Positions 3,378-17,073 of a DNA stretch of 64,000 bases are shown here, piece after piece. How positions within the stretch are numbered: the stretch's first letter is position 1; each line of letters begins with the position of its first letter. The notes under the pieces are model-generated. The model searched no databases, was not told the DNA's origin, and saw only the letters and a program-made list of their open reading frames with translations. Position numbers and translations under genes: made by a program. Source of the DNA: an uncultured Mycoplasmatota bacterium (GTDB lineage: Bacteria; Bacillota_I; Bacilli_A; RF39; UBA660); NCBI GenBank assembly GCA_947056845.1, contig CAMSCJ010000009.1:554-64553 (forward strand), read 5' to 3'.

Positions 3378-5591
3378 ATGAAAACAAATAAAATGAAAAG
3401 TAAACATTGGCTTTTTCCTAAAAGAGTTTTTATTTGTTTTCTTTTTTTAATGTTTATTTTATTTGTTCAATTATGCTATTTGGCTTTATCCCCTAATATT
3501 TATGGTATTAATATGAAAGAATTTTCAGCTAATCGAAATACAGTTACAAATGTTTTAAAGTCTAATCGCGGAACTATTTATGATTCTTTAGGAAATACGT
3601 TAGCTTCTAATGTTACATCTTATACTGTTATTGCTTATGTTAATCCTAATGTGACAGGTAATTCTAAAGTTCAAAAACATGTTACAGATGTTATTACAAC
3701 AGCTGAAGCTCTTTCTCCTATTTTGGATATGGATGTTGAAGTTATAAAAAAACTTTTAAATGATGCGATTAATAAAAATGCTTGGCAAGTAGAATTGGGT
3801 CCAGGTGGAAGAAATATTACGGAATTAAAAAAGGAAGAAATCGAGTCTTTAGGTTTACCTGGCATTGATTTTGTTGAGTCAACCAAAAGGTATTATCCTA
3901 ATGGTGATTTTGCTTCATATATAATTGGCTATGTACGACGCTATGAGCAAGAGGTTAATGAGGATGGTATTGATAAATTACAATATAATTTAGTTGGTGA
4001 AATGGGAATAGAATCACGCTATAATAAAGAACTTAGTGGTAGAGATGGCTCATTAACTTATCAAAGAGATTTATCTGGTTATAAAATCCCAGATACACCG
4101 GAGATACTTGATCCTGCAATCGATGGGAATGATATTTATTTAACAATTGATTCTAATATTCAAAGATTTGTTGAATCATCTGTTAAAGAGGTGATGGAGA
4201 ATAATAATCCTGAGTGGATGACATTAACAGTTATGAATGCTAAAACAGGTGAAATTTTAGGTACTTCAGCAACACCATCTTTTGATCCAAATATTAAGAA
4301 TATTACTAATTATGAAAATCCGCTCATATCAACTACTTATGAACCAGGTTCAACTATGAAAATATATACCTATATGTGTGCGATGGAGACAGGGTTATAT
4401 AATGGTGAAGATTTATATCAATCTGGTAGTATTCGATTTACTGATGACGTAGTTAAGGATTGGAATGTTTGGGGATGGGGTAAAATTAGTTATGATAAAG
4501 GTTTTGAATATTCTAGTAATGTAGCTGTTTCGACTTTGATGCAAACAATTTTAGATAAACAAAAATTGCGCTCATGTTTAGAAAGCTATGGTTTTGGAGA
4601 ACAAACTGGGATTGAACTTTCTAATGAGGCGGCCGGAAATATATCATCATTTAATTATCCAATTGAGGTCGCTAATGCCTCATTTGGTCAAGGAATTACC
4701 ATTACAGCTATTCAACAATTGCAAGCATTAACGATTATTTCTAATAATGGTAAAATGCTGAAACCACATATTGTAAAAAAAATTGTTGATAGTAGTACTG
4801 GAGAAACTTTATTTGAAACAAAAGTTGAAGAAAGTGAACAGCTTGTTAGCGAGGAAACGATAAAAAAAATAAAAAAATTAATGTATAATGTTATTAATAG
4901 TGATGATCCTGTAGCTACAGGTAAAAATTATAAAATTAATGGTTTAGATGTTATAGGTAAAACTGGAACAGCTCAAATTTATGATAATACTTTAGGGCGA
5001 TATTTAGATGGAGAAAATGACTATATCTTTTCATTTGCTGGAATGTATCCGTATGATGATCCTCAAATAATTGTTTATGCAACGATGAAGAAACCTAGTA
5101 ATGGTGCTAGTAGTGGATTAGTAGCAGCTTCAAAATCAGTTATGGAGAGTGTAGCTAAGTTTAAAAATATTTTTAACGATAAAAGTAATATTGAAGTAGT
5201 TGATACACTTGAAATCGAAAATTATAATAATATGTTATTAGATGATGTTGTGAATGATTTGTCAAAACATGGCTTTAATTTGGTAATTATTGGAGATGGT
5301 AAAAAGGTTGTTGATCAATATCCTAAACCCAATACCACAATGATTACTGGTGATAAAATTTATTTAATAACAAATGGTCAAAATATAGTATTGCCAGATA
5401 TGTTAGGATGGGCTTTAGCCGATGTTCAAAAGTTCTTCGAATTAACAAAATTTAATTATACATTTGAAGGATTTGGATATGTCTATGAGCAATCAATTGC
5501 TAAAGATACGGTTTTAACTAATGAAATGACTGTTGATTTAAAATTAAGGGATAAGTTTTTTGATAAGCAGGAAAATGCAAATACTGAGTAG
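3378..5591 (+). CDS. pbpB: Class B penicillin-binding protein with C-terminal PASTA domains (PBP2B/FtsI-like)
   Basis: N-terminal TM anchor, a transpeptidase domain (STMK, SSN, KTGTA motifs) and two PASTA-like repeats. Confidence 0.9.
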   Translation: MKTNKMKSKHWLFPKRVFICFLFLMFILFVQLCYLALSPNIYGINMKEFSANRNTVTNVLKSNRGTIYDSLGNTLASNVTSYTVIAYVNPNVTGNSKVQKHVTDVITTAEALSPILDMDVEVIKKLLNDAINKNAWQVELGPGGRNITELKKEEIESLGLPGIDFVESTKRYYPNGDFASYIIGYVRRYEQEVNEDGIDKLQYNLVGEMGIESRYNKELSGRDGSLTYQRDLSGYKIPDTPEILDPAIDGNDIYLTIDSNIQRFVESSVKEVMENNNPEWMTLTVMNAKTGEILGTSATPSFDPNIKNITNYENPLISTTYEPGSTMKIYTYMCAMETGLYNGEDLYQSGSIRFTDDVVKDWNVWGWGKISYDKGFEYSSNVAVSTLMQTILDKQKLRSCLESYGFGEQTGIELSNEAAGNISSFNYPIEVANASFGQGITITAIQQLQALTIISNNGKMLKPHIVKKIVDSSTGETLFETKVEESEQLVSEETIKKIKKLMYNVINSDDPVATGKNYKINGLDVIGKTGTAQIYDNTLGRYLDGENDYIFSFAGMYPYDDPQIIVYATMKKPSNGASSGLVAASKSVMESVAKFKNIFNDKSNIEVVDTLEIENYNNMLLDDVVNDLSKHGFNLVIIGDGKKVVDQYPKPNTTMITGDKIYLITNGQNIVLPDMLGWALADVQKFFELTKFNYTFEGFGYVYEQSIAKDTVLTNEMTVDLKLRDKFFDKQENANTE

Positions 5592-5662
5592 TTGTCAGTA
5601 TTTTTCTTGTTTGCCTAACTATTATTGTTATACAATTTTTTTAATTTTTATGGGGTGAGATT

Positions 5663-6193
5663 ATGCGAATAATATTTATTTCTGATATTCATGGAATAAC
5701 TAAAAATTTAGATTATATAAAGAAAACTTTTGATATTTTAAATTGCGACAGAATAGTTGTTTTAGGTGATTTATTTAATGGTCCTTCTATTTTAGAAGAT
5801 TATAATTCTTTATATGTTTTAGAATTTTTAAATAGTTTTAAAGATAAACTAATTTGTATGCGAGGTAATTGTGATACTAATAGCGATTTAAAAAAGTGCG
5901 ATTTTAGCATTTATGATGGCTTATTTAAAATAAAAATAGATAATTATAATTTTTATTTTAATCATGGTAATAGTTATAATTATGATAATTTAGGCGATAT
6001 TAATGAAGGCGTTTTAATATACGGTCATGAGCATAAGCCATATATTCGAAAAAAAGGTAATGTTTTGTGTATAAACCCAGGTTCTATTTCTTTACCAAGA
6101 GGAAATTTTATGGAAAGCTATTTATTATATGACAATGGTAAATTTAGTATATATGAGATTAACAATAATTTAGTTTGTGAATATTTATTGTAA
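5663..6193 (+). CDS. Metallophosphoesterase (YfcE/MPP family)
   Basis: Motifs DIHG, GDLFNGP, GNCD and GHEHKP. Confidence 0.8.
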   Translation: MRIIFISDIHGITKNLDYIKKTFDILNCDRIVVLGDLFNGPSILEDYNSLYVLEFLNSFKDKLICMRGNCDTNSDLKKCDFSIYDGLFKIKIDNYNFYFNHGNSYNYDNLGDINEGVLIYGHEHKPYIRKKGNVLCINPGSISLPRGNFMESYLLYDNGKFSIYEINNNLVCEYLL

Positions 6194-6267
6194 ATTCATA
6201 CAAAGTATATTGTTTTAATTGTAGTTTTTTAGTAAGATTAATATGTCTTATTTTTATAAGATGAAAT

Positions 6268-6341
6268 GTCCTGCTAGCTTAATTGGATAGAGCAACTCTC
6301 CAACTAAGAGGTAGATAGGGGTTCGATTCCCCTGCGGGATA
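6268..6341 (+). tRNA. tRNA gene with canonical T-arm but atypical anticodon loop (CCAACUA); isotype uncertain
   Basis: The acceptor stem GUCCUGC/GCGGGAU has two G-U pairs. D-arm is GCTT-AATTGGATA-GAGC. T-arm is AGGGG-TTCGATT-CCCCT. A T7 run follows the discriminator base. The anticodon stem CUCU/AGAG leaves a loop with C33 and U37, so the anticodon cannot be read with confidence. Confidence 0.55.
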
Positions 6342-6425
6342 TTTTTTTGTGATTTTAAAAAAATTATTTTAAATTTGTTTCTAAAAAACTTAATTTATGA
6401 TATAGTTAATTAGAGGTAGATGATA

Positions 6426-7472
6426 ATGGCTAATGTAATAAACGAAAAATGTCCAACATGCAATGCACCACTTAAATATGATGCTAAAAAAGATCAATTT
6501 AAGTGTGAATACTGTGCTAATGTATATTCATTAGAAGATTTAGAAAAGTATAAGAAAAAGAACGAAAAATTTAAAATTTTAGAAAAAATGTCTGATATGG
6601 ATGGATATAGATGTTCTAGTTGTGGAGCCGAAATTATAACAGGCGATAATGTGGCATCAACATCTTGTGTTTATTGTAAAAATACAGCGCTTATAAAAGA
6701 GCGATTAACAGGGCTATATGCCCCAAGTAAAATTATAACTTTTAAATATAATAAAGACGACGCTATTAATGCTTTTAAGAAAAAATGTAAGGGTAGATTA
6801 CTTCTTCCTAGTCAATTTAATGATATTAAAAATATTCAAGAGATGGAGGGACTTTATGTACCATTTTGGCTATACGATTGTAACAATGATGCTAGTTTAA
6901 CGGCAAAATGTACTAAGGTTAAGTCTTGGTCAGATTCTAGGTATGTTTATACCAAAACAGATACTTATAATGTATCACGTTCTGGAGATTTAAATTTTGT
7001 TAAAGTACCAGCTGATGGCTCTAGTCGTTTTGATGATACGATAATGAGTGCGATTGAGCCATTTAATTATGATGAATTTAAAAATTTTAATATGTCGTAT
7101 TTGTCGGGTTATATTTCTGAAAAATATGATGTTGATAAAGATGCAGCTTATAATGTAACTATGAATAGAATAAAAGAAGATTCAAAACGTTATTTATTGG
7201 ATAGTATTGTTGGTTATACAACCAAAGTGATTAATTCTAATAATGATGATATTAAATTAAATAATACTGATTATGTATTGTTACCTGTTTGGGTATTGAA
7301 TATAAAATTTAAAGAAAAAATTTATCATTTTGCTTATAATGGTCAAACTGGAAAAATGGTTGGAGAAATACCTGTTGATAAGAAAAAATTATTATTAACA
7401 ATTATTATTAGCTTTATAGTACCTTTTATTATTATATTACTTATTTTTGTTTCTCAAGGATATAGGTGGTAA
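6426..7472 (+). CDS. Double zinc-ribbon protein with C-terminal TM anchor (unknown function)
   Basis: Two CxxC...CxxC pairs at the N-terminus, a roughly 220-aa middle domain, and a C-terminal TM helix. The ATG at 6426 fits the GAGGT SD spacing best. Confidence 0.7.
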   Translation: MANVINEKCPTCNAPLKYDAKKDQFKCEYCANVYSLEDLEKYKKKNEKFKILEKMSDMDGYRCSSCGAEIITGDNVASTSCVYCKNTALIKERLTGLYAPSKIITFKYNKDDAINAFKKKCKGRLLLPSQFNDIKNIQEMEGLYVPFWLYDCNNDASLTAKCTKVKSWSDSRYVYTKTDTYNVSRSGDLNFVKVPADGSSRFDDTIMSAIEPFNYDEFKNFNMSYLSGYISEKYDVDKDAAYNVTMNRIKEDSKRYLLDSIVGYTTKVINSNNDDIKLNNTDYVLLPVWVLNIKFKEKIYHFAYNGQTGKMVGEIPVDKKKLLLTIIISFIVPFIIILLIFVSQGYRW

Positions 7473-7473
7473 T

Positions 7474-8370
7474 ATGAAGAAGTTTTTAATATTTTTTATA
7501 ACTTTATTTTGTAGTATTCAAAATGTCGGGGCAATGGTAACTACTTATGAAAGAACAACCGATGACTATTTAGTTCCTGATTCAATTAATATTACTTCTA
7601 GTAATAGAAATGCTATTTTAAAAACGCCAGCTGTTAATGAAAATGAAAAAGTTTACGATTTTGCCAATTTACTTGATGATAGTGAAGAAGATCAATTATA
7701 TAATAAAATTAATAATTATATTGAAACGAGTAAATATGATTTAGTAATTGTTACAATTAATGATAATAATAAGTATAGTGCTACAGAGTATGCTGACGAT
7801 TTCTTTGATTATAATAATTTTGGGTTTGGAACTAGTCGCGATGGTCTTTTGATTCTAATTGATATGGATACACGAGTGATATGGATATCGACTAGTGGTA
7901 TGGCTATAAAGATGTATGATGATTCAAGGATTGATAGTATTATTGATGCAGGTTATTATTATTTAAAAAATCAGGAATATTATGAATGTTTAACAAGAGT
8001 GATAGATAAAATAAATAATTATTTTTTATCTGGTTATCCAAGTAGTAATAGTAATTTATTTATTGATGAAGATGGAAATCCTTACTATATTAAAAAGATT
8101 CCTTATGTAATGGTATTATTAATGTCTGGTGCTATATGCGCCATTACATCATTAATTTTATATTTTAAAACATCCTCGAAGATTAAAAAACAGAATACCG
8201 TTACTTATATTAACCCTAATATGACTAATATAATTAAGAATGATCAATTTGTTACAACTTATACATCACGTGTTAGAATTCAATCTAGTTCTAGTGGTTC
8301 AGGTGGTGGTAGTAGTTTTCATTCAAGTAGTAGTGGAAGAAGTCATGGTGGTGGAGGTCGAAGCTTTTGA
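7474..8370 (+). CDS. TPM-domain (TLP18.3/Psb32/MOLO-1 type) protein with C-terminal TM and Gly/Ser-rich tail
   Basis: Signal peptide. TPM signature (VYDFANLL...DLVIVTI...RDGLLILIDMDTRVIWISTSG). TM helix followed by an SSSGSGGGSS tail. Abuts the stop of the zinc-ribbon gene. Ends with a TGA stop. Confidence 0.8.
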   Translation: MKKFLIFFITLFCSIQNVGAMVTTYERTTDDYLVPDSINITSSNRNAILKTPAVNENEKVYDFANLLDDSEEDQLYNKINNYIETSKYDLVIVTINDNNKYSATEYADDFFDYNNFGFGTSRDGLLILIDMDTRVIWISTSGMAIKMYDDSRIDSIIDAGYYYLKNQEYYECLTRVIDKINNYFLSGYPSSNSNLFIDEDGNPYYIKKIPYVMVLLMSGAICAITSLILYFKTSSKIKKQNTVTYINPNMTNIIKNDQFVTTYTSRVRIQSSSSGSGGGSSFHSSSSGRSHGGGGRSF

Positions 8371-8397
8371 TCTTGGTTTTATTTAACCAAGATTTTT
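8371..8397 (+). terminator. Rho-independent terminator (TCTTGGTT-loop-AACCAAGA plus T6)
   Basis: Hairpin and T-run directly after the TPM gene stop. Confidence 0.6.
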
Positions 8398-8427
8398 TGC
8401 TTTTTATTATTTAAAATTATTATTATG

Positions 8428-8436
8428 TGATATAAT
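8428..8436 (+). promoter_or_regulatory. Extended -10 promoter (TGaTATAAT) for the membrane-LRR/rSAM operon
   Basis: A TGnTATAAT element lies about 18 nt upstream of the GGTGA SD of the 8454 gene. Confidence 0.45.
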
Positions 8437-8453
8437 TAAATTAGGTGAGTTGT

Positions 8454-9182
8454 ATGTACAATAAGTTATACTTTTTCTTGGTTATAGTTATATTTTGTTT
8501 TCCAATTATATTAGCCCTTTTTCCTTGGATATTAATATATTGGCTTCCTATCTTGGTTTTAATATTAGTTATTATTATCATTTTTAAAGTCAAAAAAATT
8601 GGGAATTTTAATAAATTTAGAAAAATTTTATTAGAGTATCCCAACAATGGTATTAATATTGATGAAATTATTAATTTAATTGCTAAAAATAAAGAAGATA
8701 ATTATATTAGTGTTATGATTGAAAAGGAGCTTATAAAAAATAATTATACGCGAAAAAACAATTTAAAGATAATTACCAAAAGAAAGTTTATTTTAACGAT
8801 TATTTTTTCTACTATTAATTTTTCCTTTTTAGTAGGTGTATTTTTTCATTTTCCAATTTATATTTATTTTTTAGAACTACTAAATATAATTTTATATATT
8901 GTATTTATGAAAAAAATTAATGTCATAAATGTTATCAAAAAAGAAATTAAATCAAGACCAACGGAAAATATTTCTTATATTATTTCTAGTATGCTAAATG
9001 GAAATATTGTTTATTCTTCGGGTAAATTTAAAAATTGTATTTTTATATTAGTTTCTATTGTATTACCACTTTTTATTTTCTTTAATCCGCATATTTTGTA
9101 TGAAAAAGTCGATGGTGGTTATTATGTTAGATTTTATACAATTGGTATAACAAATTATCAAACAGTTACTATTCCTGATTAA
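8454..9182 (+). CDS. Polytopic membrane protein; N-terminal portion of a membrane-anchored LRR protein interrupted by an in-frame TAA
   Basis: GGTGA SD 5 nt upstream of the ATG at 8454. Multiple TM helices. The last residues (YTIGITNYQTVTIPD) already follow the BspA-type LRR pattern, which continues in frame after the TAA at 9180-9182. Confidence 0.6.
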   Translation: MYNKLYFFLVIVIFCFPIILALFPWILIYWLPILVLILVIIIIFKVKKIGNFNKFRKILLEYPNNGINIDEIINLIAKNKEDNYISVMIEKELIKNNYTRKNNLKIITKRKFILTIIFSTINFSFLVGVFFHFPIYIYFLELLNIILYIVFMKKINVINVIKKEIKSRPTENISYIISSMLNGNIVYSSGKFKNCIFILVSIVLPLFIFFNPHILYEKVDGGYYVRFYTIGITNYQTVTIPD

Positions 9183-10112
9183 TATAAAGGTGAAAAGGTA
9201 ATTGGTATTAGAGGTAATGTTTTTAAAAATATGGTATTTTTAAAAGAGATTAAGTTGCCAGATACGATACAGGTAATTCGTGGTGGAGCTTTCGAAAATG
9301 TTTATAATTTAACAGCAATCGATTTACCAAAAGACTTAATTTATTTAGGTGGTAGTGCTTTTAAAAACTGTAGGTCCCTAAAAAGTATAACAATACCTAG
9401 TGGTGTTAAGGAAATTAATGGTAATACTTTTGAAAATTGTTATTCGTTAGAAGATGTTAACCTACATAATGAAATTACTAGTATTCATGGTGAGGTATTT
9501 AAAAATTGTACTTCTTTAGTAAAAATAAATTTGCCTAGTAAGATAACCGAAATAAGAGGATCAACATTTGAAGGTTGCACTGCGCTAAAAGAAATAGATA
9601 TTCCATCTGGTGTTACTAGAATCGGTGGACATGCATTTCATGGGTGTAGTTCTTTGACTAAGGTTAGTGTGCCTTCAACCGTAGAGGAAATAGGTAGTTC
9701 AGCTTTTAGAGCCTGCACTTCTTTATATTCAATAAAAATTCCTAAAAATGCAATAGTTAATGAGAGAGCATTCAAAGAAAGCCCAACAAGTGTTAGTTAT
9801 ATAGGAGAGGATAATCCAACTTATAACAATAACAATAATTCTGTTGATTCAAAAACGTATACATTATATTTAAATCAAGAGAAATATATTAATGATGAAT
9901 TGCGTATTACCCTAATATCATTTACCGATACAACTCATGATGAAAATATATTTATTGGGATGAGTGGAACAATCAAAATAGTTACAAAAAAGGATACATA
10001 TTATTTTGATTTTCAAACATCATCTCCACAAAATTATAAATATATTTTTGAAGGTTATACTTTAGAAGTAAAATCAGGGATGGATAATTATATTAAAATA
10101 ATTTTTCGTTAA
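9183..10112 (+). CDS. BspA-type leucine-rich repeat (LRR_5) domain plus beta-rich C-terminal domain; same frame as 8454..9182 with no independent RBS
   Basis: Repeats such as IPSGVKEINGNTFENCYSL and IPSGVTRIGGHAFHGCSSL. The frame is open from 9183, and the first Met (9231) lacks any SD. The ORF-track call is 9231..10112. Confidence 0.6.
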   Translation, partial: YKGEKVIGIRGNVFKNMVFLKEIKLPDTIQVIRGGAFENVYNLTAIDLPKDLIYLGGSAFKNCRSLKSITIPSGVKEINGNTFENCYSLEDVNLHNEITSIHGEVFKNCTSLVKINLPSKITEIRGSTFEGCTALKEIDIPSGVTRIGGHAFHGCSSLTKVSVPSTVEEIGSSAFRACTSLYSIKIPKNAIVNERAFKESPTSVSYIGEDNPTYNNNNNSVDSKTYTLYLNQEKYINDELRITLISFTDTTHDENIFIGMSGTIKIVTKKDTYYFDFQTSSPQNYKYIFEGYTLEVKSGMDNYIKIIFR

Positions 10113-10130
10113 GTATTTACAGGAGGTTTT

Positions 10131-11882
10131 ATGAGCGACTACAAATTTATGCATCTTCTTTATGTTCCAACTATGGCTTGTAATATGGCCTGTAAGTATT
10201 GCTATTTAGAAGATAATACCAAAGATGAATGGGGTAAGTATAAAGCAATTGATACATTAAAATTTGCTATAGAAAAATTTAAGAAATCTAATGTAATCCC
10301 TTTTAATATTTCATTACATGGTGGTGAAGTTACAACTTTAAGCAAAGATGAATTTCATAATTTGATTGAATATATTGATGCTTATTATAAAGATAATAAC
10401 AACTTAATTACGGGAAATGGTTTTAAAGTTGGCAATCCACATATTAAAACTAATTTATATGATTTAAAAAAGCATATTGATACGATTAGAAAGTTTTCTG
10501 TTTCTATTAGTGGTAGTTTGGATCTTCCGTTTTCCTTACATGATAAGTTTAGGATAACTAAAGGTGAAAAGAAAACATTACATAATATTTTAACTAACAT
10601 TGCTTTATTAGAAACAATCCCTAATAAAAAGAAAATCTCGGCAACCATTTTTAAAGAACATTATAAATATATTGAAGAGATAATTAATGATATAAAATTT
10701 TTAGATAAAAGTACTTGTTTAGATATGAACGATTTTAATTTTATGATTGGTTTTGATTATAATTCAAATGGCTTGTTAACACCTTTGACAGAAGAAGAAC
10801 AAGTTAAATTTTTTAAACGAATGCACAAAGAATTTGATGGAACTAATTTGGATAAAGGTGTTAATGGTGCTTGGTTTAATGAGTTTGGACCAGAGTATTG
10901 TACCAATTGTGATAATTGTGGGGAAAAATTCTTTTTGTTAGAAAAAAATGGCGATATTTACTCTTGTGTTAGAGGTCAAAAAAATAAAGATTTCTATTAT
11001 GGAAATATTTATAAGGATAGTGTGGAAACAATTTTAGAAAATGCTAAAATAAAAATATTTAAAATTCATAATCAACTATCTTTTAATGCGGAATGTTCTA
11101 AATGTGAATACTTATATTTATGTAAAACAGGTTGTCCATTTGTAAAAAATGTTTATAAATCTAATAAATCATACACTTGTAAATTACAATTAGAATTATA
11201 CCAACAAAGAAATTATGAAAAAGACGCATATCCAGATGAAACAACTTATGAATATGTATCTAAATTACACCCTAGTTTAATTGAAAAATATTATCCAAAT
11301 CAGGAACCAAATCTTGGTTATCCCAGTCTAGAAAAAATAATAGAAGAAGACTCCAGATTAAAATATTTATATGATAATAATACCTTTATTCTATCAGTTG
11401 ATGATTATAAATATTTTTTAGAATCACAAATTTTAAGAAAAAAAAGAGAAATTATTTATATTAGTGATGAAAGTAAAATTAAGATATATTTAGATAAAAA
11501 AGTAATGGAAGCTGAATGTGATTATCCACAAAACAATTCTTTATATATAATGGTATTAAGTGGCAATTTAATTCAGTATGGTGATGAAGGTCGAATTAAA
11601 CAGGAACATATTATGTCTGAACAAATATATAAGGGTGTTTTAGAAAAAAATGAATCTGATTTAGATGAATATTTTTGTTATGATATTTCAAATATGCTTA
11701 AAGAATTTAAAAAATACTATTCAAAAGATAATCCTAATAATTTATTTTTTACAACTAATGCCTTAAGAGATTATCATTATACAAAGCAAAAAAATAATGC
11801 TTATTATCATTTTCAAGCAATTAATTTACCATTTCAAAATATTGAGTTTTATTATGTAGAGGAGGAAGATTATGTTAAATAA
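10131..11882 (+). CDS. Radical SAM/SPASM-domain enzyme (anSME/peptide-maturase-like) with roughly 200-aa C-terminal extension
   Basis: AGGAGG SD. A Cx3Cx2C motif (CNMACKYC) spans residues 17-24. SPASM-type cysteine clusters (CTNCDNCGE...YSC and CSKCEYLYLCKTGCPF). The protein is 583 aa, whereas anSME-type enzymes are about 370-400 aa. Confidence 0.85.
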   Translation: MSDYKFMHLLYVPTMACNMACKYCYLEDNTKDEWGKYKAIDTLKFAIEKFKKSNVIPFNISLHGGEVTTLSKDEFHNLIEYIDAYYKDNNNLITGNGFKVGNPHIKTNLYDLKKHIDTIRKFSVSISGSLDLPFSLHDKFRITKGEKKTLHNILTNIALLETIPNKKKISATIFKEHYKYIEEIINDIKFLDKSTCLDMNDFNFMIGFDYNSNGLLTPLTEEEQVKFFKRMHKEFDGTNLDKGVNGAWFNEFGPEYCTNCDNCGEKFFLLEKNGDIYSCVRGQKNKDFYYGNIYKDSVETILENAKIKIFKIHNQLSFNAECSKCEYLYLCKTGCPFVKNVYKSNKSYTCKLQLELYQQRNYEKDAYPDETTYEYVSKLHPSLIEKYYPNQEPNLGYPSLEKIIEEDSRLKYLYDNNTFILSVDDYKYFLESQILRKKREIIYISDESKIKIYLDKKVMEAECDYPQNNSLYIMVLSGNLIQYGDEGRIKQEHIMSEQIYKGVLEKNESDLDEYFCYDISNMLKEFKKYYSKDNPNNLFFTTNALRDYHYTKQKNNAYYHFQAINLPFQNIEFYYVEEEDYVK

Positions 11883-12264
11883 ACAACCAAAAACTTATCA
11901 GGAATTAATTATGTTTAAACAATGTTGTGAATTATCAAAATATTATATAATAACTGATGAATTATTTAATGAAATCTATGACTTTTTAAGTGAAAGAACG
12001 GATAATAGTATTTATATATCTACGGCTAGTAATGTTTTAAATTTTTATAGTAACGAAAATAATAATAATAACTTTTTTGTGAGAGAACCAATTGTATTAA
12101 CACCTAAAAAAAATAATCTTAGTAGTTCTATTGATAAGATTTATATAAAAAATAATAAATTTGAAATTATACAACATTTTACAAGTTCAACATATCATAG
12201 TGGAAGTTCAGGTTCTTCTTCAAATAACAACAATAACAATAACAATAATAACAACAATAATTAA
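11872..12264 (+). CDS. Hypothetical 130-aa protein with poly-Asn tail, translationally coupled to the rSAM gene
   Basis: The GAGGAGG SD is embedded in the last rSAM codons, and the start overlaps the rSAM stop by 11 nt. The tail reads SGSSGSSSN(13). Confidence 0.55.
   Translation: MLNKQPKTYQELIMFKQCCELSKYYIITDELFNEIYDFLSERTDNSIYISTASNVLNFYSNENNNNNFFVREPIVLTPKKNNLSSSIDKIYIKNNKFEIIQHFTSSTYHSGSSGSSSNNNNNNNNNNNNN
12223..12261 (+). repeat. Trinucleotide (AAT/AAC)n simple-sequence repeat encoding poly-Asn
   Basis: About 13 consecutive AAY codons at the 3' end of the 11872 ORF. Confidence 0.7.
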
Positions 12265-12275
12265 TGAGGTAATGT

Positions 12276-13310
12276 ATGGCAAGAATAACAGAAAAATTAC
12301 ATATTGCGAGACTAAAAAAATTTAATATTAATATAAAAACTAAATATAAAGATGACGATGATATTTTAGAAAGAAATACAGATAATTCTAAAAATGATGA
12401 TATTAATAATGGTATTAGAATTGAAAAAGATTATTATCAAAATGGTATTTTATTAAAAAAACTTTATAATTTTGACCCTAGAATAAAATATACTTTTATA
12501 TCTAAAGATAGTGAAAATAAAGAAATTGAATGTCCTAATTGTGGTAATCGTGGTATTGTTAAAGATTTTTTAGAAGGTTGTGAATATTGTGGCACGCATT
12601 ATAATATAGATTATAATAATAAAGGCTTAGGGGCTAAATATCATTATGATAGAACGATTCATAGTAATCATTATATAACAATAACTTTTCTTATTGATTT
12701 AATTGTTTGTTTAATAATCTTTTTAATATATATAAAGGGAAGTAGTCGAACTTTTAATATATACGATATTTGTAAAGTTTTAATTGGTGGTGTTATTACG
12801 GCTTCAGCTCTTTTCTATGTATTTTATATGCTTGACGCTGTAATCGTTCTTTTACCTATAAAAATATATAAAGATAAACAAAATCAAAAGCAAATAGCGT
12901 TTTGGAATAGAATGAAAGAAAAAAATATTGATGCACTAACATTTTATAACAATTTTAATTATGAATTACAAGATTATTATTACGGAAGTCTATCAGAAGA
13001 TGATAACATAATTGATTATGATATAATTGATTACCATAGTTTTAATGATTCTCTTGATTCTAATAATTTTTTAAATATTGAGGTATGTGTAAGTATTCGT
13101 ATTGTAAGACTAATCAATAATAAAATTACTTCAAAAATTGAGAAGAAATTGTTTAAATTAAAGAAAAATAATAAAAAAATGGAAAGATTAAATAATGGTG
13201 TTAATTTGATTAATTGCCATAATTGTGGAGCCTCAATTGATGTTACTCATGGTGAGTGTGATTATTGTCATACTAAGAATAATTATTTACAAGAGTGGTA
13301 TTTGGTTTAA
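12276..13310 (+). CDS. Membrane protein with N- and C-terminal zinc ribbons flanking TM helices (unknown function)
   Basis: GAGGT SD. The N-terminal part carries CPNCGNRG...CEYCG. Two or three TM helices lie in the middle. The C-terminal part carries CHNCGA...CDYCH. Confidence 0.65.
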   Translation: MARITEKLHIARLKKFNINIKTKYKDDDDILERNTDNSKNDDINNGIRIEKDYYQNGILLKKLYNFDPRIKYTFISKDSENKEIECPNCGNRGIVKDFLEGCEYCGTHYNIDYNNKGLGAKYHYDRTIHSNHYITITFLIDLIVCLIIFLIYIKGSSRTFNIYDICKVLIGGVITASALFYVFYMLDAVIVLLPIKIYKDKQNQKQIAFWNRMKEKNIDALTFYNNFNYELQDYYYGSLSEDDNIIDYDIIDYHSFNDSLDSNNFLNIEVCVSIRIVRLINNKITSKIEKKLFKLKKNNKKMERLNNGVNLINCHNCGASIDVTHGECDYCHTKNNYLQEWYLV

Positions 13311-13392
13311 AAAAATAAATGAAAAATAAGTGTAATTTCTAATATTTATACTTATTTTTTTTTAAATTCATAAAATTTTATGAGGTGTTATC

Positions 13393-15300
13393 ATGTTTGT
13401 AAGAGATTATCATAAAAGAATTAAAATTATATTAGTTGTAATTATTTTATTATTTGTTTTAATAATTGGTAAGATATTTTATATTCAAGTTTTTAGTTAT
13501 AATAAGTTAAATGATTATGCGAATGATTTATGGAGTAGAAATTTACCAATTGAGGCTAACCGAGGAATTATTTATGATCGTAATGGTGTAGTAATTGCTG
13601 ATAATATTACGACAACTTCATTAGTTTTAATCCCTAATCAAATTGATGATAAAGAAAAAACAGCTAAAGAATTAGCCGAAGTATTAAATGTAAGTTATGA
13701 TGATATGTATGCGCATGTCTCTAAAAAAACATCTATTGAAAGAGTCCATCCTGAAGGAAGAAGATTATCGTATGAAGTTGCTGACAAAATAGCTAGTTTA
13801 AATCTGCCGGGTGTTTACTTAGTTAAAGAGTCAAAACGTAATTATCCCTTTGATACTTATTTATCTCATACATTAGGTTTTGTTGGAATTGATAACCAGG
13901 GTCTAAGTGGCTTAGAGTTAATGTATGATAATCTTTTGACAGGTGAATATGGCGCAATAAAATATTTTAGTGACGCAAAGGGAAATAGGTTAAGTTTAAA
14001 TGAGGTTTATGAAAAACCGCAAGATGGAATAAATATGACTTTGACAATTAATATGGATATTCAAGTCTCGTTAGAAAGAGAACTTGATAATGCGATGTTA
14101 AAATATAATCCAGATCAAGCCTTAGGAATTGTTATGGACCCTAAAACTGGTGAAATTTTGGCAATTTCATCACGACCTAATTTTTCACCTAGTGAATATC
14201 AAAATTATACAGTAGAAGAGATAAATAGAAATTTACCAGTATGGATGACTTATGAACCTGGTTCAACTTTTAAAATAATTACTTTAGCTGCTTCGTTAGA
14301 AGAAAAAATTGTTGATTTAGATAATGATCATTTTTCTGATTCAGGTGCGATTAGAGTAGATAATGCCACACTTCATTGTTGGAAACATGGGGGACATGGG
14401 GAACAAACTTATCTGCAAGTCGTTGAAAATTCATGCAATCCAGGATTTGTAAATTTAGGTTTAAAATTAGGTAAGGAAACACTATTTGATTATATAGATA
14501 AATTTGGTTTTGGAGAAAAAACTGGTGTAGATTTAAATGGTGAAGGAACAGGAATTATTTTTAATCTTGATAAAGTTGGTAATGTTGAATTAGCAACAAC
14601 CGCTTTTGGTCAAGGTGTATCAGTTACTCCAATCCAACAAATAACAGCAGTTAGTGCTGCCATTAATGGTGGTTATTTAAATAAACCTTATATTGTTAAA
14701 AGTCTAAATGAGCCAGAAACAAATACAGTAATACAAGAAAATGAAAGGCAAATTGTTAGAAAAGTAATAAGCGAAGAAACAAGCGAAAAGGTTAGATATG
14801 CACTAGAAAGTGTTGTATCAAATGGAACAGGACGGCCTGCTTATATTGACGGTTATCGTGTAGGGGGAAAAACTGGTACAGCTCAAAAAGTCCAAAATGG
14901 GCGTTATATGGTTGGGAATTATATTGTATCTTTTATAGGTTTTTTACCAGCTGATGATCCCCAAGTTATTGTTTATATAGCTTTGGATAACGCGAAAGGT
15001 GTTGTGCAATATGGTGGAACAGTAGCAGCTCCCATTGCTAAAACCGTTTTAACAGACGCAATAACAGCTTTGGGGATTGAGAAAAGGGAAGGAAGTACCG
15101 AAAAAAAATATAATTATAATGATAAAAAATATATTGATGTTGCTAATGTAGTAGGCATGGATAAAAATGAAGCTATTAAAAATTTAAAAAGCTTTAAAGT
15201 TGAATATACAGGAACAGGAAATAAGGTTATATATCAGTCTCCTAGTGCAGGCGAAAGAATTTTAGAAGGTGAAACAGTAAGATTGTTACTTGAGGATTAG
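13393..15300 (+). CDS. Class B penicillin-binding protein, SpoVD/FtsI-like, with one C-terminal PASTA domain
   Basis: TM anchor. Transpeptidase motifs STFK, SCN and KTGTA. A PASTA repeat at the C-terminus. GAGGTG SD. Confidence 0.9.
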   Translation: MFVRDYHKRIKIILVVIILLFVLIIGKIFYIQVFSYNKLNDYANDLWSRNLPIEANRGIIYDRNGVVIADNITTTSLVLIPNQIDDKEKTAKELAEVLNVSYDDMYAHVSKKTSIERVHPEGRRLSYEVADKIASLNLPGVYLVKESKRNYPFDTYLSHTLGFVGIDNQGLSGLELMYDNLLTGEYGAIKYFSDAKGNRLSLNEVYEKPQDGINMTLTINMDIQVSLERELDNAMLKYNPDQALGIVMDPKTGEILAISSRPNFSPSEYQNYTVEEINRNLPVWMTYEPGSTFKIITLAASLEEKIVDLDNDHFSDSGAIRVDNATLHCWKHGGHGEQTYLQVVENSCNPGFVNLGLKLGKETLFDYIDKFGFGEKTGVDLNGEGTGIIFNLDKVGNVELATTAFGQGVSVTPIQQITAVSAAINGGYLNKPYIVKSLNEPETNTVIQENERQIVRKVISEETSEKVRYALESVVSNGTGRPAYIDGYRVGGKTGTAQKVQNGRYMVGNYIVSFIGFLPADDPQVIVYIALDNAKGVVQYGGTVAAPIAKTVLTDAITALGIEKREGSTEKKYNYNDKKYIDVANVVGMDKNEAIKNLKSFKVEYTGTGNKVIYQSPSAGERILEGETVRLLLED

Positions 15301-15320: not shown

Positions 15321-15350
15321 ATGAAAAGCATATTATTACTTTTCATTTTT
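15321..15350. terminator. Bidirectional terminator between convergent genes (AAAATGAAAAG-loop-CTTTTCATTTT)
   Basis: A palindrome flanked by an A-run on one side and a T-run on the other. Confidence 0.5.
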
Positions 15351-15854
15351 TATAAGTATTTTATTATAAGTTGGTTTTAATTTAGATATTCTAATTTGCT
15401 CTCCTAAATATTTTTGATTTTCAATAGGAGATAAGGACCAATCGTTGTTTAAATATCTAATAATATTTTGAATTATATATAATTCATTTTCTTCAATGTG
15501 TTCACTAGATTCTAAAAATACTAAAGCTGATTTTTCAATGTTTGAAGTTTCAAAATTTAAAGAAAATCTTTTTAATTCGTCGACTAAATCATTTAATTCA
15601 TGTTTATTTTTTATGATAGGGATTTCTTGTTTAGAGATGGCAATACAAAAATCTAGATTAGTTGGATCTTGAATAATTTTAAGCGTATAATCTTCTTTTA
15701 AACTCATAAACATTTCATTTAAAATATCAATTTCTGTATCAGTAATATCAAATTTTGAATCAATCAAAGTTATTGCCTCTTGCATAATTCTCTTATCATT
15801 TAAATCGGTAACATGTGCCATATACTCTTTAATAATTTGACTAAAATTATCCAT
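15336..15854 (-). CDS. Hypothetical protein (about 172 aa), co-transcribed with the HD-GYP gene
   Basis: Overlaps the HD-GYP gene stop. AAAGGAG SD upstream of the second ATG (MDNF). Confidence 0.55.
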   Translation of the reverse strand: MDNFSQIIKEYMAHVTDLNDKRIMQEAITLIDSKFDITDTEIDILNEMFMSLKEDYTLKIIQDPTNLDFCIAISKQEIPIIKNKHELNDLVDELKRFSLNFETSNIEKSALVFLESSEHIEENELYIIQNIIRYLNNDWSLSPIENQKYLGEQIRISKLKPTYNKILIKNEK

Positions 15855-17073
15855 TATTCGCATCTCCTTTTACTAATTGTTTATCACGTTTTTGTTTTTG
15901 CCCATCTTGTTCTTTTTTGTAATTTATATTTAAGTCAGCTTGTCTTTTGGCTTCCCTTAAATTATCCATTGTCGTTTTACTATTACTAATGACATCAATA
16001 AATTTGTCAACCAATTTGGGATTATAGAAGACACCTAATCCATCGCCATCACCATAAGGTTTTGTATGTCTTTTTAAGTCTTCAAAGGCTTCTTCGGCCG
16101 ATTTTACCCTGTTATAGGAACGCTGTGATGTCATGGCGTCAAAACTATCAGCAATTGCTAGAATTTGCGCTAATAAGGGAATTTGTTCTCCTTTTAAACC
16201 ATCAGGATAGCCACTTCCATCATATTTTTCATGATGTGCTCTAACTGCGTCTTTTAAATATCCTAATTGATTTGCTGGTAGCAATGTAGCTCCAAGCTCA
16301 ACATGTTTTTTCATTAAATTAAATTCCAAATCATTTAATTTATCTGTTTTAGTTATAACTGCATCAGGTAAGGCAATCTTTCCAATATCATGAAGGTTAG
16401 CTGCTAAAATTAAATTTTCTAATTCTTCTTCATTCATACCCAAAGCATGACCTAGAGCTTCCGCATAATTAGCAACTCTTTCACAATGACCTCTAGTATA
16501 ATTGTCCTTTAAAGAAATAAAATCATTTAATGTTTGTGCTAATTTGAATAGGTATTTTTTTGAGATATAATTTACACTTTTACCACTATTTAAATCTGCC
16601 TCAATATCCATTGACTTATATATGTTTTTGGCACCTAAATTAGTTAATATTTGTAATTTCATAATGTTAGATAATTGGCACATATCAATAATTTGTTTCA
16701 TCGATTTCTCAGTTTTGGTTGTTGTTATTTGTTTACCTTTTTTTACTTCTTCAACCTTCTCATTAGTTAATTCAAAGGTATTATCTAAATTTACTTGTTG
16801 TTTTTTAGTACTAACTTTGGCTAAACTACAATGTGATTCATATAAAATATTTATAATTTTATTATCAATTAAACTATCTATATCACAGATTACAATATCT
16901 GGTTTTTGTAAGATATGAAAATCTTTCAATTCATTAAACCTGGAAGAATCATTTCCAATATCTACGACATCAAAATGTTCTGTCGGAAGGTATTTATTAA
17001 TAATCATATATTCTCTAGCACTAATATTATATAGCCATATAGTGTATTTACTGTTTTTATAAATTTCTTGCAT
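15847..17073 (-). CDS. HD-GYP domain phosphohydrolase with degenerate receiver-like N-terminal domain
   Basis: HD motif (HDIGK) and GYP motif (HHEKYDGSGYPDG). AAAGGTGA SD. Confidence 0.8.
   Translation of the reverse strand: MQEIYKNSKYTIWLYNISAREYMIINKYLPTEHFDVVDIGNDSSRFNELKDFHILQKPDIVICDIDSLIDNKIINILYESHCSLAKVSTKKQQVNLDNTFELTNEKVEEVKKGKQITTTKTEKSMKQIIDMCQLSNIMKLQILTNLGAKNIYKSMDIEADLNSGKSVNYISKKYLFKLAQTLNDFISLKDNYTRGHCERVANYAEALGHALGMNEEELENLILAANLHDIGKIALPDAVITKTDKLNDLEFNLMKKHVELGATLLPANQLGYLKDAVRAHHEKYDGSGYPDGLKGEQIPLLAQILAIADSFDAMTSQRSYNRVKSAEEAFEDLKRHTKPYGDGDGLGVFYNPKLVDKFIDVISNSKTTMDNLREAKRQADLNINYKKEQDGQKQKRDKQLVKGDANNG

Follow-up and report, generated by a model that had tools for sequence, protein, structure and literature searches.

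A radical SAM/SPASM enzyme and its asparagine-tailed partner proteins: a candidate protein-modification system of uncultured Bacilli and phages

The enzyme and its asparagine-tailed partner

The window analyzed here is a 64,000-nucleotide stretch of an uncultured Mycoplasmatota genome (GenBank assembly GCA_947056845.1, contig CAMSCJ010000009.1, positions 554 to 64,553), with a GC content of 24–30%. On its + strand, positions 8428–13310 hold five entries of a mechanical list of open reading frames (ORFs), which correspond to a cassette of four co-directional genes. These encode a membrane-anchored leucine-rich repeat (LRR) protein of the BspA type (8454–10112, interrupted in the window), a 583-residue radical S-adenosylmethionine (SAM)/SPASM enzyme (10131–11882), a 130-residue partner protein ending in a run of asparagines (11872–12264), and a 344-residue zinc-ribbon membrane protein (12276–13310). 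The gaps of 18, −11, and 11 nt given in a first-pass annotation are correct (10112 to 10131; an 11-nt overlap between 11872 and 11882; 12264 to 12276). We put at about even the chance that the cassette represents an unrecognized, widespread post-translational modification system, in which an enzyme resembling anSME would alter the poly-Asn tails of small cytoplasmic proteins, both in gut Bacilli and in environmental bacteria of high GC content, and the distal ends of phage tail fibers.

The hallmark of radical SAM enzymes is a CX3CX2C motif, which ligates the [4Fe-4S] cluster responsible for cleaving SAM. The enzyme carries this motif as C17-x3-C21-x2-C24 (10179–10202), at the residues (17–24) to which it had been assigned at first pass, and the three cysteines are invariant in 80 close and 10 distant homologs. 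SPASM proteins are defined by a C-terminal motif of seven to eight cysteines (CX9-15GX4C … CX2CX5CX3C … C) that holds two auxiliary clusters. The corresponding region (residues 257–350, 10899–11180) has the spacing C263-x10-G-x4-C279, C322-x2-C325-x5-C331-x3-C335, and C350, plus C257. These nine positions, counting C260, are at least 95% conserved among the 80 homologs and, with the exception of C260, are invariant in an 11-sequence cross-clade alignment. The two SPASM-type cysteine clusters originally described are therefore confirmed, with a Pfam SPASM match of 25.6 bits (cut-off 21.5). TIGR04085 scores 45.7 bits (cut-off 27), Fer4_12 31.1 (cut-off 22), and Radical_SAM 28.6, slightly below its cut-off of 29.5.

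A family-profile search of the PDB placed anSME (4K36) first among solved structures (E = 2.5e-16, profile positions 15–361), with all others weaker; the enzyme as a single sequence found no match in the PDB. C257, C263, C279, C322, C325, C331, C335, and C350 align one-to-one with the eight auxiliary-cluster ligands of anSME. The enzyme is, as predicted from these residues, an anSME-like core with one SAM cluster and two auxiliary [4Fe-4S] clusters, to which a family-specific β-sandwich is appended. No PqqD match was found in the enzyme, and because just 16 residues precede the radical SAM motif, it lacks an N-terminal RiPP recognition element (RRE; RiPP, a peptide made by the ribosome and modified after translation).

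The family-specific domain (residues 351–583, 11181–11879) begins with helices and continues as a β-sandwich, modeled with a pLDDT of 87.9, whose only structural neighbors are generic Ig-like or carbohydrate-binding-like folds. Its invariant residues are N469, Y483, G484, R488, K490, H493, T541, T542, H549, Y550, N556, Y559, H560, N565, and P567. An exhaustive HMMER search of 1.84 billion cluster representatives yielded only 97 matches to the domain, and in full-length proteins (~590–616 residues) it always occupies the C-terminal end.

Searches against SPASM subfamily models reached no curated family: in NCBIfam release 20 the best scores are ~83 bits, against cut-offs of 349–450, and HxsB scores 64 bits. 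The divergent family members P0150, P0125, and P0173 likewise fit no curated NCBIfam family and fall below the cut-offs for DynA and DarE. PADLOC, run on the five cassette ORFs, gave a weak generic pVip match to the N-terminus of the enzyme (27.3 bits) and nothing for the other four, while database homologs of the enzyme and its partner are named only ‘radical SAM protein’ or ‘hypothetical protein’. The pairing is thus not described in NCBIfam, Pfam, PADLOC, or the names of homologs, as the first-pass annotation had suspected.

The partner gene has its own Shine–Dalgarno sequence (GAGGAGG). An AlphaFold2 (AF2) model built from 45 sequences predicts a folded α/β domain at residues 8–102 (11893–12177; pLDDT ~90) and a low-confidence tail at residues 103–130. 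The tail comprises a Ser/Gly-rich linker (residues 103–117, …SSTYHSGSSGSSS; 12178–12222), predicted to be disordered, and a C-terminal run of 13 Asn (12223–12261). The run is written with seven AAT and six AAC codons, interspersed (AAT AAC AAC AAT AAC AAT AAC AAT AAT AAC AAC AAT AAT). The first-pass annotation noted the run correctly, but used it as a label and missed it as the defining conserved feature of the protein.

No structural relative of the partner fold was found in the PDB or BFVD, and neither Pfam nor NCBIfam has a family for the partners of any clade. A protein search with the N-terminal part alone gave no match; a 26-sequence profile retrieved the family, which in a database of 5.8 billion proteins forms 195 clusters, all unnamed or ‘hypothetical’ and without a Pfam domain. 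A C-terminal run of five or more Asn is present in 114 of the 120 cluster representatives listed. The partner contains no (C/S)xPxR sulfatase motif and no consistently placed aromatic residue near the Asn tail, and its single, N-terminal Cys is not invariant in the 26-sequence alignment from the species loci.

Conservation in Bacilli, other clades, and phages

The distribution of the cassette was scanned in one genome per GTDB species. Relatives of the enzyme are encoded in 219 stretches, of which the best 80 were examined; these enzymes show 66–77% identity. The hosts are uncultured gut ‘Bacilli’ metagenome-assembled genomes (MAGs), Clostridium sp. CAG:524/417/465, Mycoplasma sp. CAG:877, and Candidatus Faecimonas. 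Searches by tblastn with the window proteins recovered the membrane and LRR parts at 79/80 loci, the zinc-ribbon protein at 73/80, and the 130-residue protein at 70/80; the genes flanking the cassette in the window (PBP, TPM protein, and phosphoesterase) were recovered at 1–3 of 80. Cassette order and strand are the same in every related locus and the flanking genes are not shared; the linkage of the enzyme to its neighbors is kept across taxa in 79/80 species loci. Given that no curated family fits the enzyme and that this linkage is conserved, it does not behave as a housekeeping protein that lies beside these genes by chance. The four-gene cassette is also found in gut metagenome contigs of 42–48% GC (L216–L240).

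The tight spacing of enzyme and partner genes, from which translational coupling was proposed in the window, is conserved across these loci. The two genes overlap in 51 of 70 loci, the median gap is −4 nt, and it is 25 nt or less in 69 of 70. A six-frame check recovered the Asn-tailed ORF in 72 of 81 sequence sets. Among complete partner homologs from related species, 65/66 end in …PHY(T/E)PSS…GGSSS-N(10–18), and the run is followed by Arg in 47. Ser is invariant in the linker at positions −1 and −2 of the run; across three groups of loci, Ser at −1 is present in 71/71, 23/23, and 42/50. In L005, the sole exception among the 66, the Asn codons are shifted out of frame by one base: past the stop (7085–7115 of that locus) come eight of them and then a TAG, a pattern that points to a frameshift or to faulty assembly. 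L005 and L006 derive from the same MAG, in which the cassette is present twice, on separate contigs.

Codon usage, the nature of the single exception, and the lack of such runs elsewhere are evidence of selection for the run. AAC accounts for 37% of Asn codons in the tails and for 14.5% in neighboring genes, and a run of six or more Asn was found in none of ~812 other ORFs of at least 100 residues in the window and the 80 loci.

Contigs were also identified for distant homologs of the enzyme, whose C-terminal domains are 29–41% identical. On a contig of 58% GC (L081) the next gene ends in …DGTWT-N10-G, and on one of 64% GC (L082) an overlapping next gene ends in …KPGQS-N18-G. A metagenome scan with a profile of the divergent clades returned 470 relatives, the best 80 loci of which were analyzed and span 23–68% GC. 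An adjacent gene ending in 6–24 Asn (most often 14) is present in 73/80; in 70 of them this gene is downstream of and codirectional with the enzyme gene, and the final residue after the run is Gly in 47 and Arg in 21. At a GC content of 55% or more there are 28 loci, with runs of 7–22 Asn, for example …SRS-N22-G at 65% GC. Of the seven loci that lack an Asn-tailed partner, five break off no more than 360 nt from the enzyme gene. An origin of the tail in base composition or slippage is ruled out by its persistence in loci of up to 68% GC; judging from this distribution, the tail is no low-GC artifact.

Partner domains of the high-GC and low-GC environmental clades are homologous to one another (hhalign probability 99.8%). 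The membrane proteins encoded beside the pair are distributed differently. LRR and zinc-ribbon homologs were found only beside Bacilli-type enzymes (25/80 metagenomic loci); none were detected by tblastn in 55 loci of other clades (L161–L215), and both are missing from the gene lists of L081, L082, and the phage loci. Directly upstream of the enzyme, 28 loci of divergent clades encode a protein of ~154 residues with two transmembrane (TM) segments, and in 12 loci of the low-GC environmental clade a membrane protein of ~276 residues is encoded downstream of the Asn-tailed gene. The ~154-residue protein replaces the LRR and zinc-ribbon proteins known from the Bacilli cassette (L161–L189 and similar loci); in the high-GC clade its gene often overlaps that of the enzyme and it belongs to no Pfam family (L161, 1250–1708; L082, 753–1259). 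The ~276-residue protein (L200, 6037–6912, and 11 similar loci) matches Pfam GIDE with 23.3 bits, against a threshold of 23.6.

The enzyme family extends to viruses. Residues 9–573 of the window enzyme match positions 46–549 of the 556-position profile phrog_1802 (E = 1.6e-42; PHROGs sets no curated cut-off), an entry described as ‘radical SAM domain-containing protein’ and assigned no function. In Campylobacter phage CAM-P21 (MW462221.2; L088, region 4235–7743) the order is baseplate genes, tail fiber, a 211-residue helical protein (phrog_10241), and the radical SAM gene. The fiber (phrog_1162, E = 8e-88) ends in …APSGSTNNNNY. The genome announcement of CAM-P21 is marked as retracted, with an expression of concern.

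In IMG/VR, 14 loci encode full-length enzyme homologs, and in 11 of these the gene two upstream ends in a run of three or more Asn (NNNNY, NNNNN, NNNNNNRG, NNNNNNLAGNV, NNNGNNNNSCSGGW); in the remaining three it ends in GNNF or GNNS. The Asn-ended protein is the tail fiber in Campylobacter-type viral loci and a small protein of 84–108 residues in large viral contigs. The former belong to Mu-like phages or prophages, in which a fiber ending in …NNNNY and the 211-residue helical protein precede the enzyme. In the latter (94–263 kb), the small Asn-ended ORF follows one of 869–1000 residues. Further contigs, with tails …N14G, …GGGGGSGPNNNF, and …GGGGHSGNNNSKCSG, keep the order Asn-ended gene, small protein, enzyme. 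Two genes upstream of a divergent enzyme, a collagen-like protein of Gly-X-Y repeats ends in …GYNNNNNGNNH (L087, 1–243), which indicates that Asn-ended partners include several unrelated structural proteins. The helical proteins in the middle of the phage loci are unrelated to the partner family (hhalign probability 0.5%). The viral loci were found by an alignment-based scan; a viral scan with P0173 as a single sequence gave no match.

Remaining cassette genes and their surroundings

The first gene had been read as one intact membrane–LRR gene, an interpretation that overlooked a stop codon. The frame 8454–10112 is cut by an in-frame TAA at 9180–9182 (E243*), which splits it into a hydrophobic ORF (8445–9182, the first of the five listed) and a BspA-type LRR ORF (9231–10112; Pfam LRR_5, 2.6e-57). 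Both share one frame and are parted only by the TAA, and the codons that follow it (YKGEKVIGIRGNVF…) carry on the LRR pattern. In 77/79 related loci the membrane and LRR parts form one ORF, and in L160, a locus of 99.06% DNA identity, the gene encodes a single 552-residue product with GAA at the stop position. Across the LRR gene the window and L160 differ by 17 synonymous and seven nonsynonymous codons; the stop arises by a single G→T change (GAA→TAA), and the other three cassette genes are intact. With a single ORF in relatives and GAA in L160, the TAA is, on this comparison of sequences, either a private nonsense allele or an error of sequencing. Stop-codon reassignment is unlikely, since the G→T change that produces the TAA is private to the window when compared with a genome of 99% identity.

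The intact protein of ~552 residues consists of an N-terminal multi-TM region, an LRR domain predicted to be extracellular, and a variable C-terminal domain. LRR_5 (PF13306) scores 192.6 bits in the window and 178.5 bits in the intact ortholog of L160, against a gathering threshold of 27.7.

The zinc-ribbon protein is ordered as an N-terminal domain, a CxxC-x12-CxxC ribbon (C86, C89, C102, and C105; 12531–12590), a TM hairpin recognized by its hydrophobicity (residues ~133–195; 12672–12860), a cytoplasmic domain, and a CxxC-x10-CxxC ribbon (C314, C317, C328, and C331; 13215–13268). The cysteines of both ribbons are scored as invariant, each of the eight being at least 95% conserved in 68 homologs. 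This conservation is compatible with the double zinc ribbon assigned at first pass, but the window protein itself stays below the curated Pfam cut-offs (DZR, PF12773: 18.2 bits, gathering threshold 27.3); 24/24 homologs match DZR or HypA-type ribbons, with E values down to 2e-6. For this family Pfam returned ribbon models only, and nothing for the intervening domains. The ribbons had also been placed on opposite faces of the membrane. They do flank the TM segments in sequence, but the pattern of hydrophobicity and charge places both in the cytoplasm.

The 5′ boundary of the unit is a terminator-like hairpin with a T-run (8369–8394, + strand), which ends the upstream TPM gene and is the only such site in 8300–13500. 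Directly after it, an extended −10-like motif, TGATATAAT, can be read at 8428–8436, followed by AGGTGAG (8443–8449) ahead of the ATG at 8454. The TGnTATAAT promoter proposed earlier is thus present as a motif, but such matches occur at chance level in this AT-rich stretch (47 found, against 49.6 expected from shuffled sequences). Since consensus matches are not enriched, the promoter is plausible from its position only; lying downstream of the hairpin, it makes the start of a transcription unit here plausible.

Upstream of the boundary lies an overlapping pair of genes. The first (6420–7472) encodes a protein with a double zinc ribbon and a C-terminal TM helix that belongs to no Pfam family and shows no significant similarity to the zinc-ribbon protein of the cassette. 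The second (7447–8370) encodes a TPM-domain protein whose C-terminal tail is rich in Gly and Ser. The 99%-identical relative has this pair too, but it was not found beside the cassette in other species. Downstream, after the PBP gene and convergent with it, 15336–17073 (− strand) encodes an HD-GYP-type (HD_5/HD) protein and a small upstream ORF, with no linkage to the cassette in other species.

Proposed function and relation to known systems

The core of the system is probably a two-gene pair of enzyme and substrate, to judge from the gene linkage, the coupling, and the conservation of the tail across GC contents and phyla, together with the residues that bind the cofactors and a tail predicted to be disordered. 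We likewise favor, with similar confidence, the view that the enzyme modifies the disordered Ser/Gly–poly-Asn tail of its partner, which would serve as substrate or at least as recognition element. This is the most economical reading because the Asn-ended, flexible Ser/Gly/Thr C-terminus alone travels through all clades. The first-pass annotation saw no conventional short precursor and suggested a protein substrate, naming the LRR, 130-residue, and zinc-ribbon proteins as candidates. The first point stands, the partner being a folded protein of 105–190 residues across clades. The second is supported and the choice can be narrowed to the 130-residue protein, since the Asn-tailed partner spans the clades whereas the LRR and zinc-ribbon proteins were found only with Bacilli-type enzymes.

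The partner would dock on the enzyme, probably via the β-sandwich, and its flexible tail would thread into the active site. There the 5′-deoxyadenosyl radical would abstract hydrogen from the tail, either from the Cβ or Cα of Asn or from the invariant Ser that precedes the run, and perhaps at more than one position. By analogy with anSME, DynA, and DarE, the auxiliary clusters would then carry the reaction through to oxidation or cross-linking. Consistent products would be those of an anSME-like Cβ oxidation, possibly of the invariant Ser, of a DynA-like cross-link at Asn Cβ, or of an epimerization. A thioether-forming reaction, as in ranthipeptides or with QhpD, is unlikely, for the tail has no Cys and the single Cys of the partner is not invariant. 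The product is more plausibly a modified protein than a released RiPP, as protease, exporter, and RRE are missing and the folded domain is conserved. It probably acts at the membrane: the Bacilli pair sits between genes for membrane proteins, and other clades carry small membrane proteins of their own.

Several observations weigh against this proposal. The Asn run might do no more than dock the protein, as a ‘follower’ peptide, while the chemistry occurs at another site; just as well, it might have a function of its own that has nothing to do with the substrate of the enzyme. The enzyme has no RRE-type recognition domain. Phage runs are shorter (2–6 Asn, against 10–24 in cellular proteins) and are followed by R, G, Y, F, N, S, or W, so that a uniform reaction is not guaranteed. 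Two divergent loci (L192 and L213) have room on both sides of the enzyme gene or downstream of it and no Asn-tailed neighbor. The Bacilli partner domain matches those of other clades weakly (hhalign probability 31%, E = 5e-4); the match shares a helix–helix–strand layout and is suggestive of a relationship. Finally, with one cassette gene broken, the local copy in the window may not be fully functional.

An alternative that we regard as unlikely gives the 130-residue protein an accessory role, such as that of a scaffold, chaperone, or targeting factor, with the tail serving to tether or oligomerize it, for example as a polar zipper. The real substrate would then be another molecule, such as a metabolite, a lipid or envelope component, or a membrane protein, an assignment to which we give the same low weight. 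The partner domain is well folded and residues distant from the tail are listed as invariant (T8, E11, C18, Y25, Y36, D88, and H102), a membrane protein adjoins the pair in every cellular clade, and the β-sandwich of the enzyme, with its Ig-like or carbohydrate-binding-like neighbors, would suit such a role. However, the membrane proteins differ from clade to clade, and the tail is the sole feature common to the 130-residue proteins, the high-GC proteins of 150 residues, the phage fibers, and the collagen-like protein. Characterized SPASM enzymes with this Cys pattern are, moreover, generally known to act on peptides or proteins.

Less probable still is a RiPP cluster, in which the 130-residue protein would be a long precursor whose Ser/Asn core is modified, cleaved, and released as a bioactive poly-Asn peptide. 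The nearest sequence models are indeed RiPP maturases (DynA, DarE, PapB, and cyclophane-forming enzymes), and a C-terminal core behind a structured N-terminal ‘leader’ formally fits the layout. Against this, conserved genes for a protease, an exporter, or immunity are missing from the cassettes of all clades, the radical SAM motif begins at residue 17 and leaves no RRE, and the phage tail belongs to structural tail-fiber proteins. Fixed gene order and 66–77% enzyme identity over 80 species also resemble a cellular function rather than a patchily distributed antibiotic cluster.

It is very doubtful that the LRR or zinc-ribbon membrane protein is the substrate and the 130-residue protein incidental. 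Both are co-conserved with the enzyme in the Bacilli-type cassette (79/80 and 73/80 loci), but neither was detected in the 55 loci of other enzyme clades searched by tblastn or in the gene lists of L081, L082, and the phage loci, where the Asn-tailed partner is present. For the LRR protein in particular, the predicted extracellular domain would be beyond the reach of a cytoplasmic Fe–S enzyme after export, and its gene is the one broken in the window while the other three are intact. That the run is an artifact of AT bias or slippage beside an ordinary anSME or housekeeping SPASM protein is scarcely credible: the low GC of the window (given here as ~24–26%) and the rank of anSME as closest solved structure by sequence profile are outweighed by 7–22 Asn beside the enzyme in 28 loci at 55–68% GC, by mixed codons and the lack of other such runs in ~812 background ORFs, and by an anSME model score of 82.7 bits against a cut-off of 349.

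Much new chemistry of proteins and peptides has come from radical SAM/SPASM enzymes, and to our knowledge every new class of substrate has so far been accompanied by a new type of bond. If the proposal holds, poly-Asn would be a new class of radical SAM substrate, and phage receptor-binding fibers would join the proteins modified by radical SAM enzymes. An Asn tail maintained against mutational bias at 65% GC makes a substrate signature that is both highly unusual and sharply delimited; it also provides a handle for genome mining, namely a radical SAM enzyme with the family-specific C-terminal domain beside a gene ending in S-N(n). The abundance of the family in uncultured gut Bacilli with reduced genomes (relatives in at least 219 GTDB species genomes) suggests a cellular role. 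It is tempting to speculate that the occurrence of the enzyme beside tail-fiber genes, in Mu-like phages of Campylobacter and in large viral contigs, reflects enzymatic modification of fiber tips by phages.

Among characterized enzymes, anSME (4K36; TIGR03942) offers the closest parallel, with the same CX3CX2C and SPASM layout and all eight auxiliary cysteines aligned. It acts on a protein substrate, abstracting hydrogen from the Cβ of Ser or Cys, and the partner described here has an invariant Ser just before the Asn run. The enzyme nonetheless scores 82.7 bits, against a TIGR03942 equivalog cut-off of 349.45, and has an extra C-terminal domain of 233 residues that anSME lacks. The partner, in turn, has no (C/S)xPxR motif and is encoded by a gene translationally coupled to that of the enzyme, and no sulfatase gene lies within the cassette.

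DynA (NF041298) scores 82.9 bits (cut-off 450), DarE (NF038005) 62.8 (cut-off 650), and the cyclophane-forming enzymes YhhB and GrrM 54.4 and 53.8, in a class that also includes XyeB and FxsB and whose cut-offs, with those of DynA and DarE, range over 310–650. DynA joins Trp to the Cβ of Asn, so that chemistry at this position has a precedent in this branch of radical SAM/SPASM enzymes. The substrates of DynA, DarE, and the cyclophane-forming enzymes are short leader–core peptides with aromatic motifs, whereas the candidate substrate here is folded and bears a homopolymeric Asn tail. More generally, the RRE or PqqD-like domain, short leader–core precursor, and usual protease or exporter of radical SAM RiPP maturation are lacking here. 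QhpD (TIGR03906) is a further radical SAM/SPASM enzyme; its target is a dedicated small protein subunit encoded alongside it and no secreted peptide. It makes thioethers from Cys to Asp or Glu, in contrast to which the Asn tail contains no Cys, and the match to it is weak (39 bits, cut-off 453).

The phage proteins of phrog_1802 belong to the same family as the enzyme, the match being full-length and including the C-terminal domain. Their loci differ in that the Asn-ended protein is encoded two genes upstream, with the helical protein between, and in the short runs of 2–6 Asn. No description of the pairing of the enzyme with poly-Asn proteins was found in the full-text literature, a coverage that leaves out most subscription journals, and searches of that literature for poly-Asn or Asn-rich sequences together with radical SAM, SPASM, or tail fiber gave nothing relevant. 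A radical SAM/SPASM maturase with a cognate partner is a known kind of system; the putative substrate signature, the additional β-sandwich domain, and the apparent link to phage tail fibers are new, as far as the databases and literature searched show.

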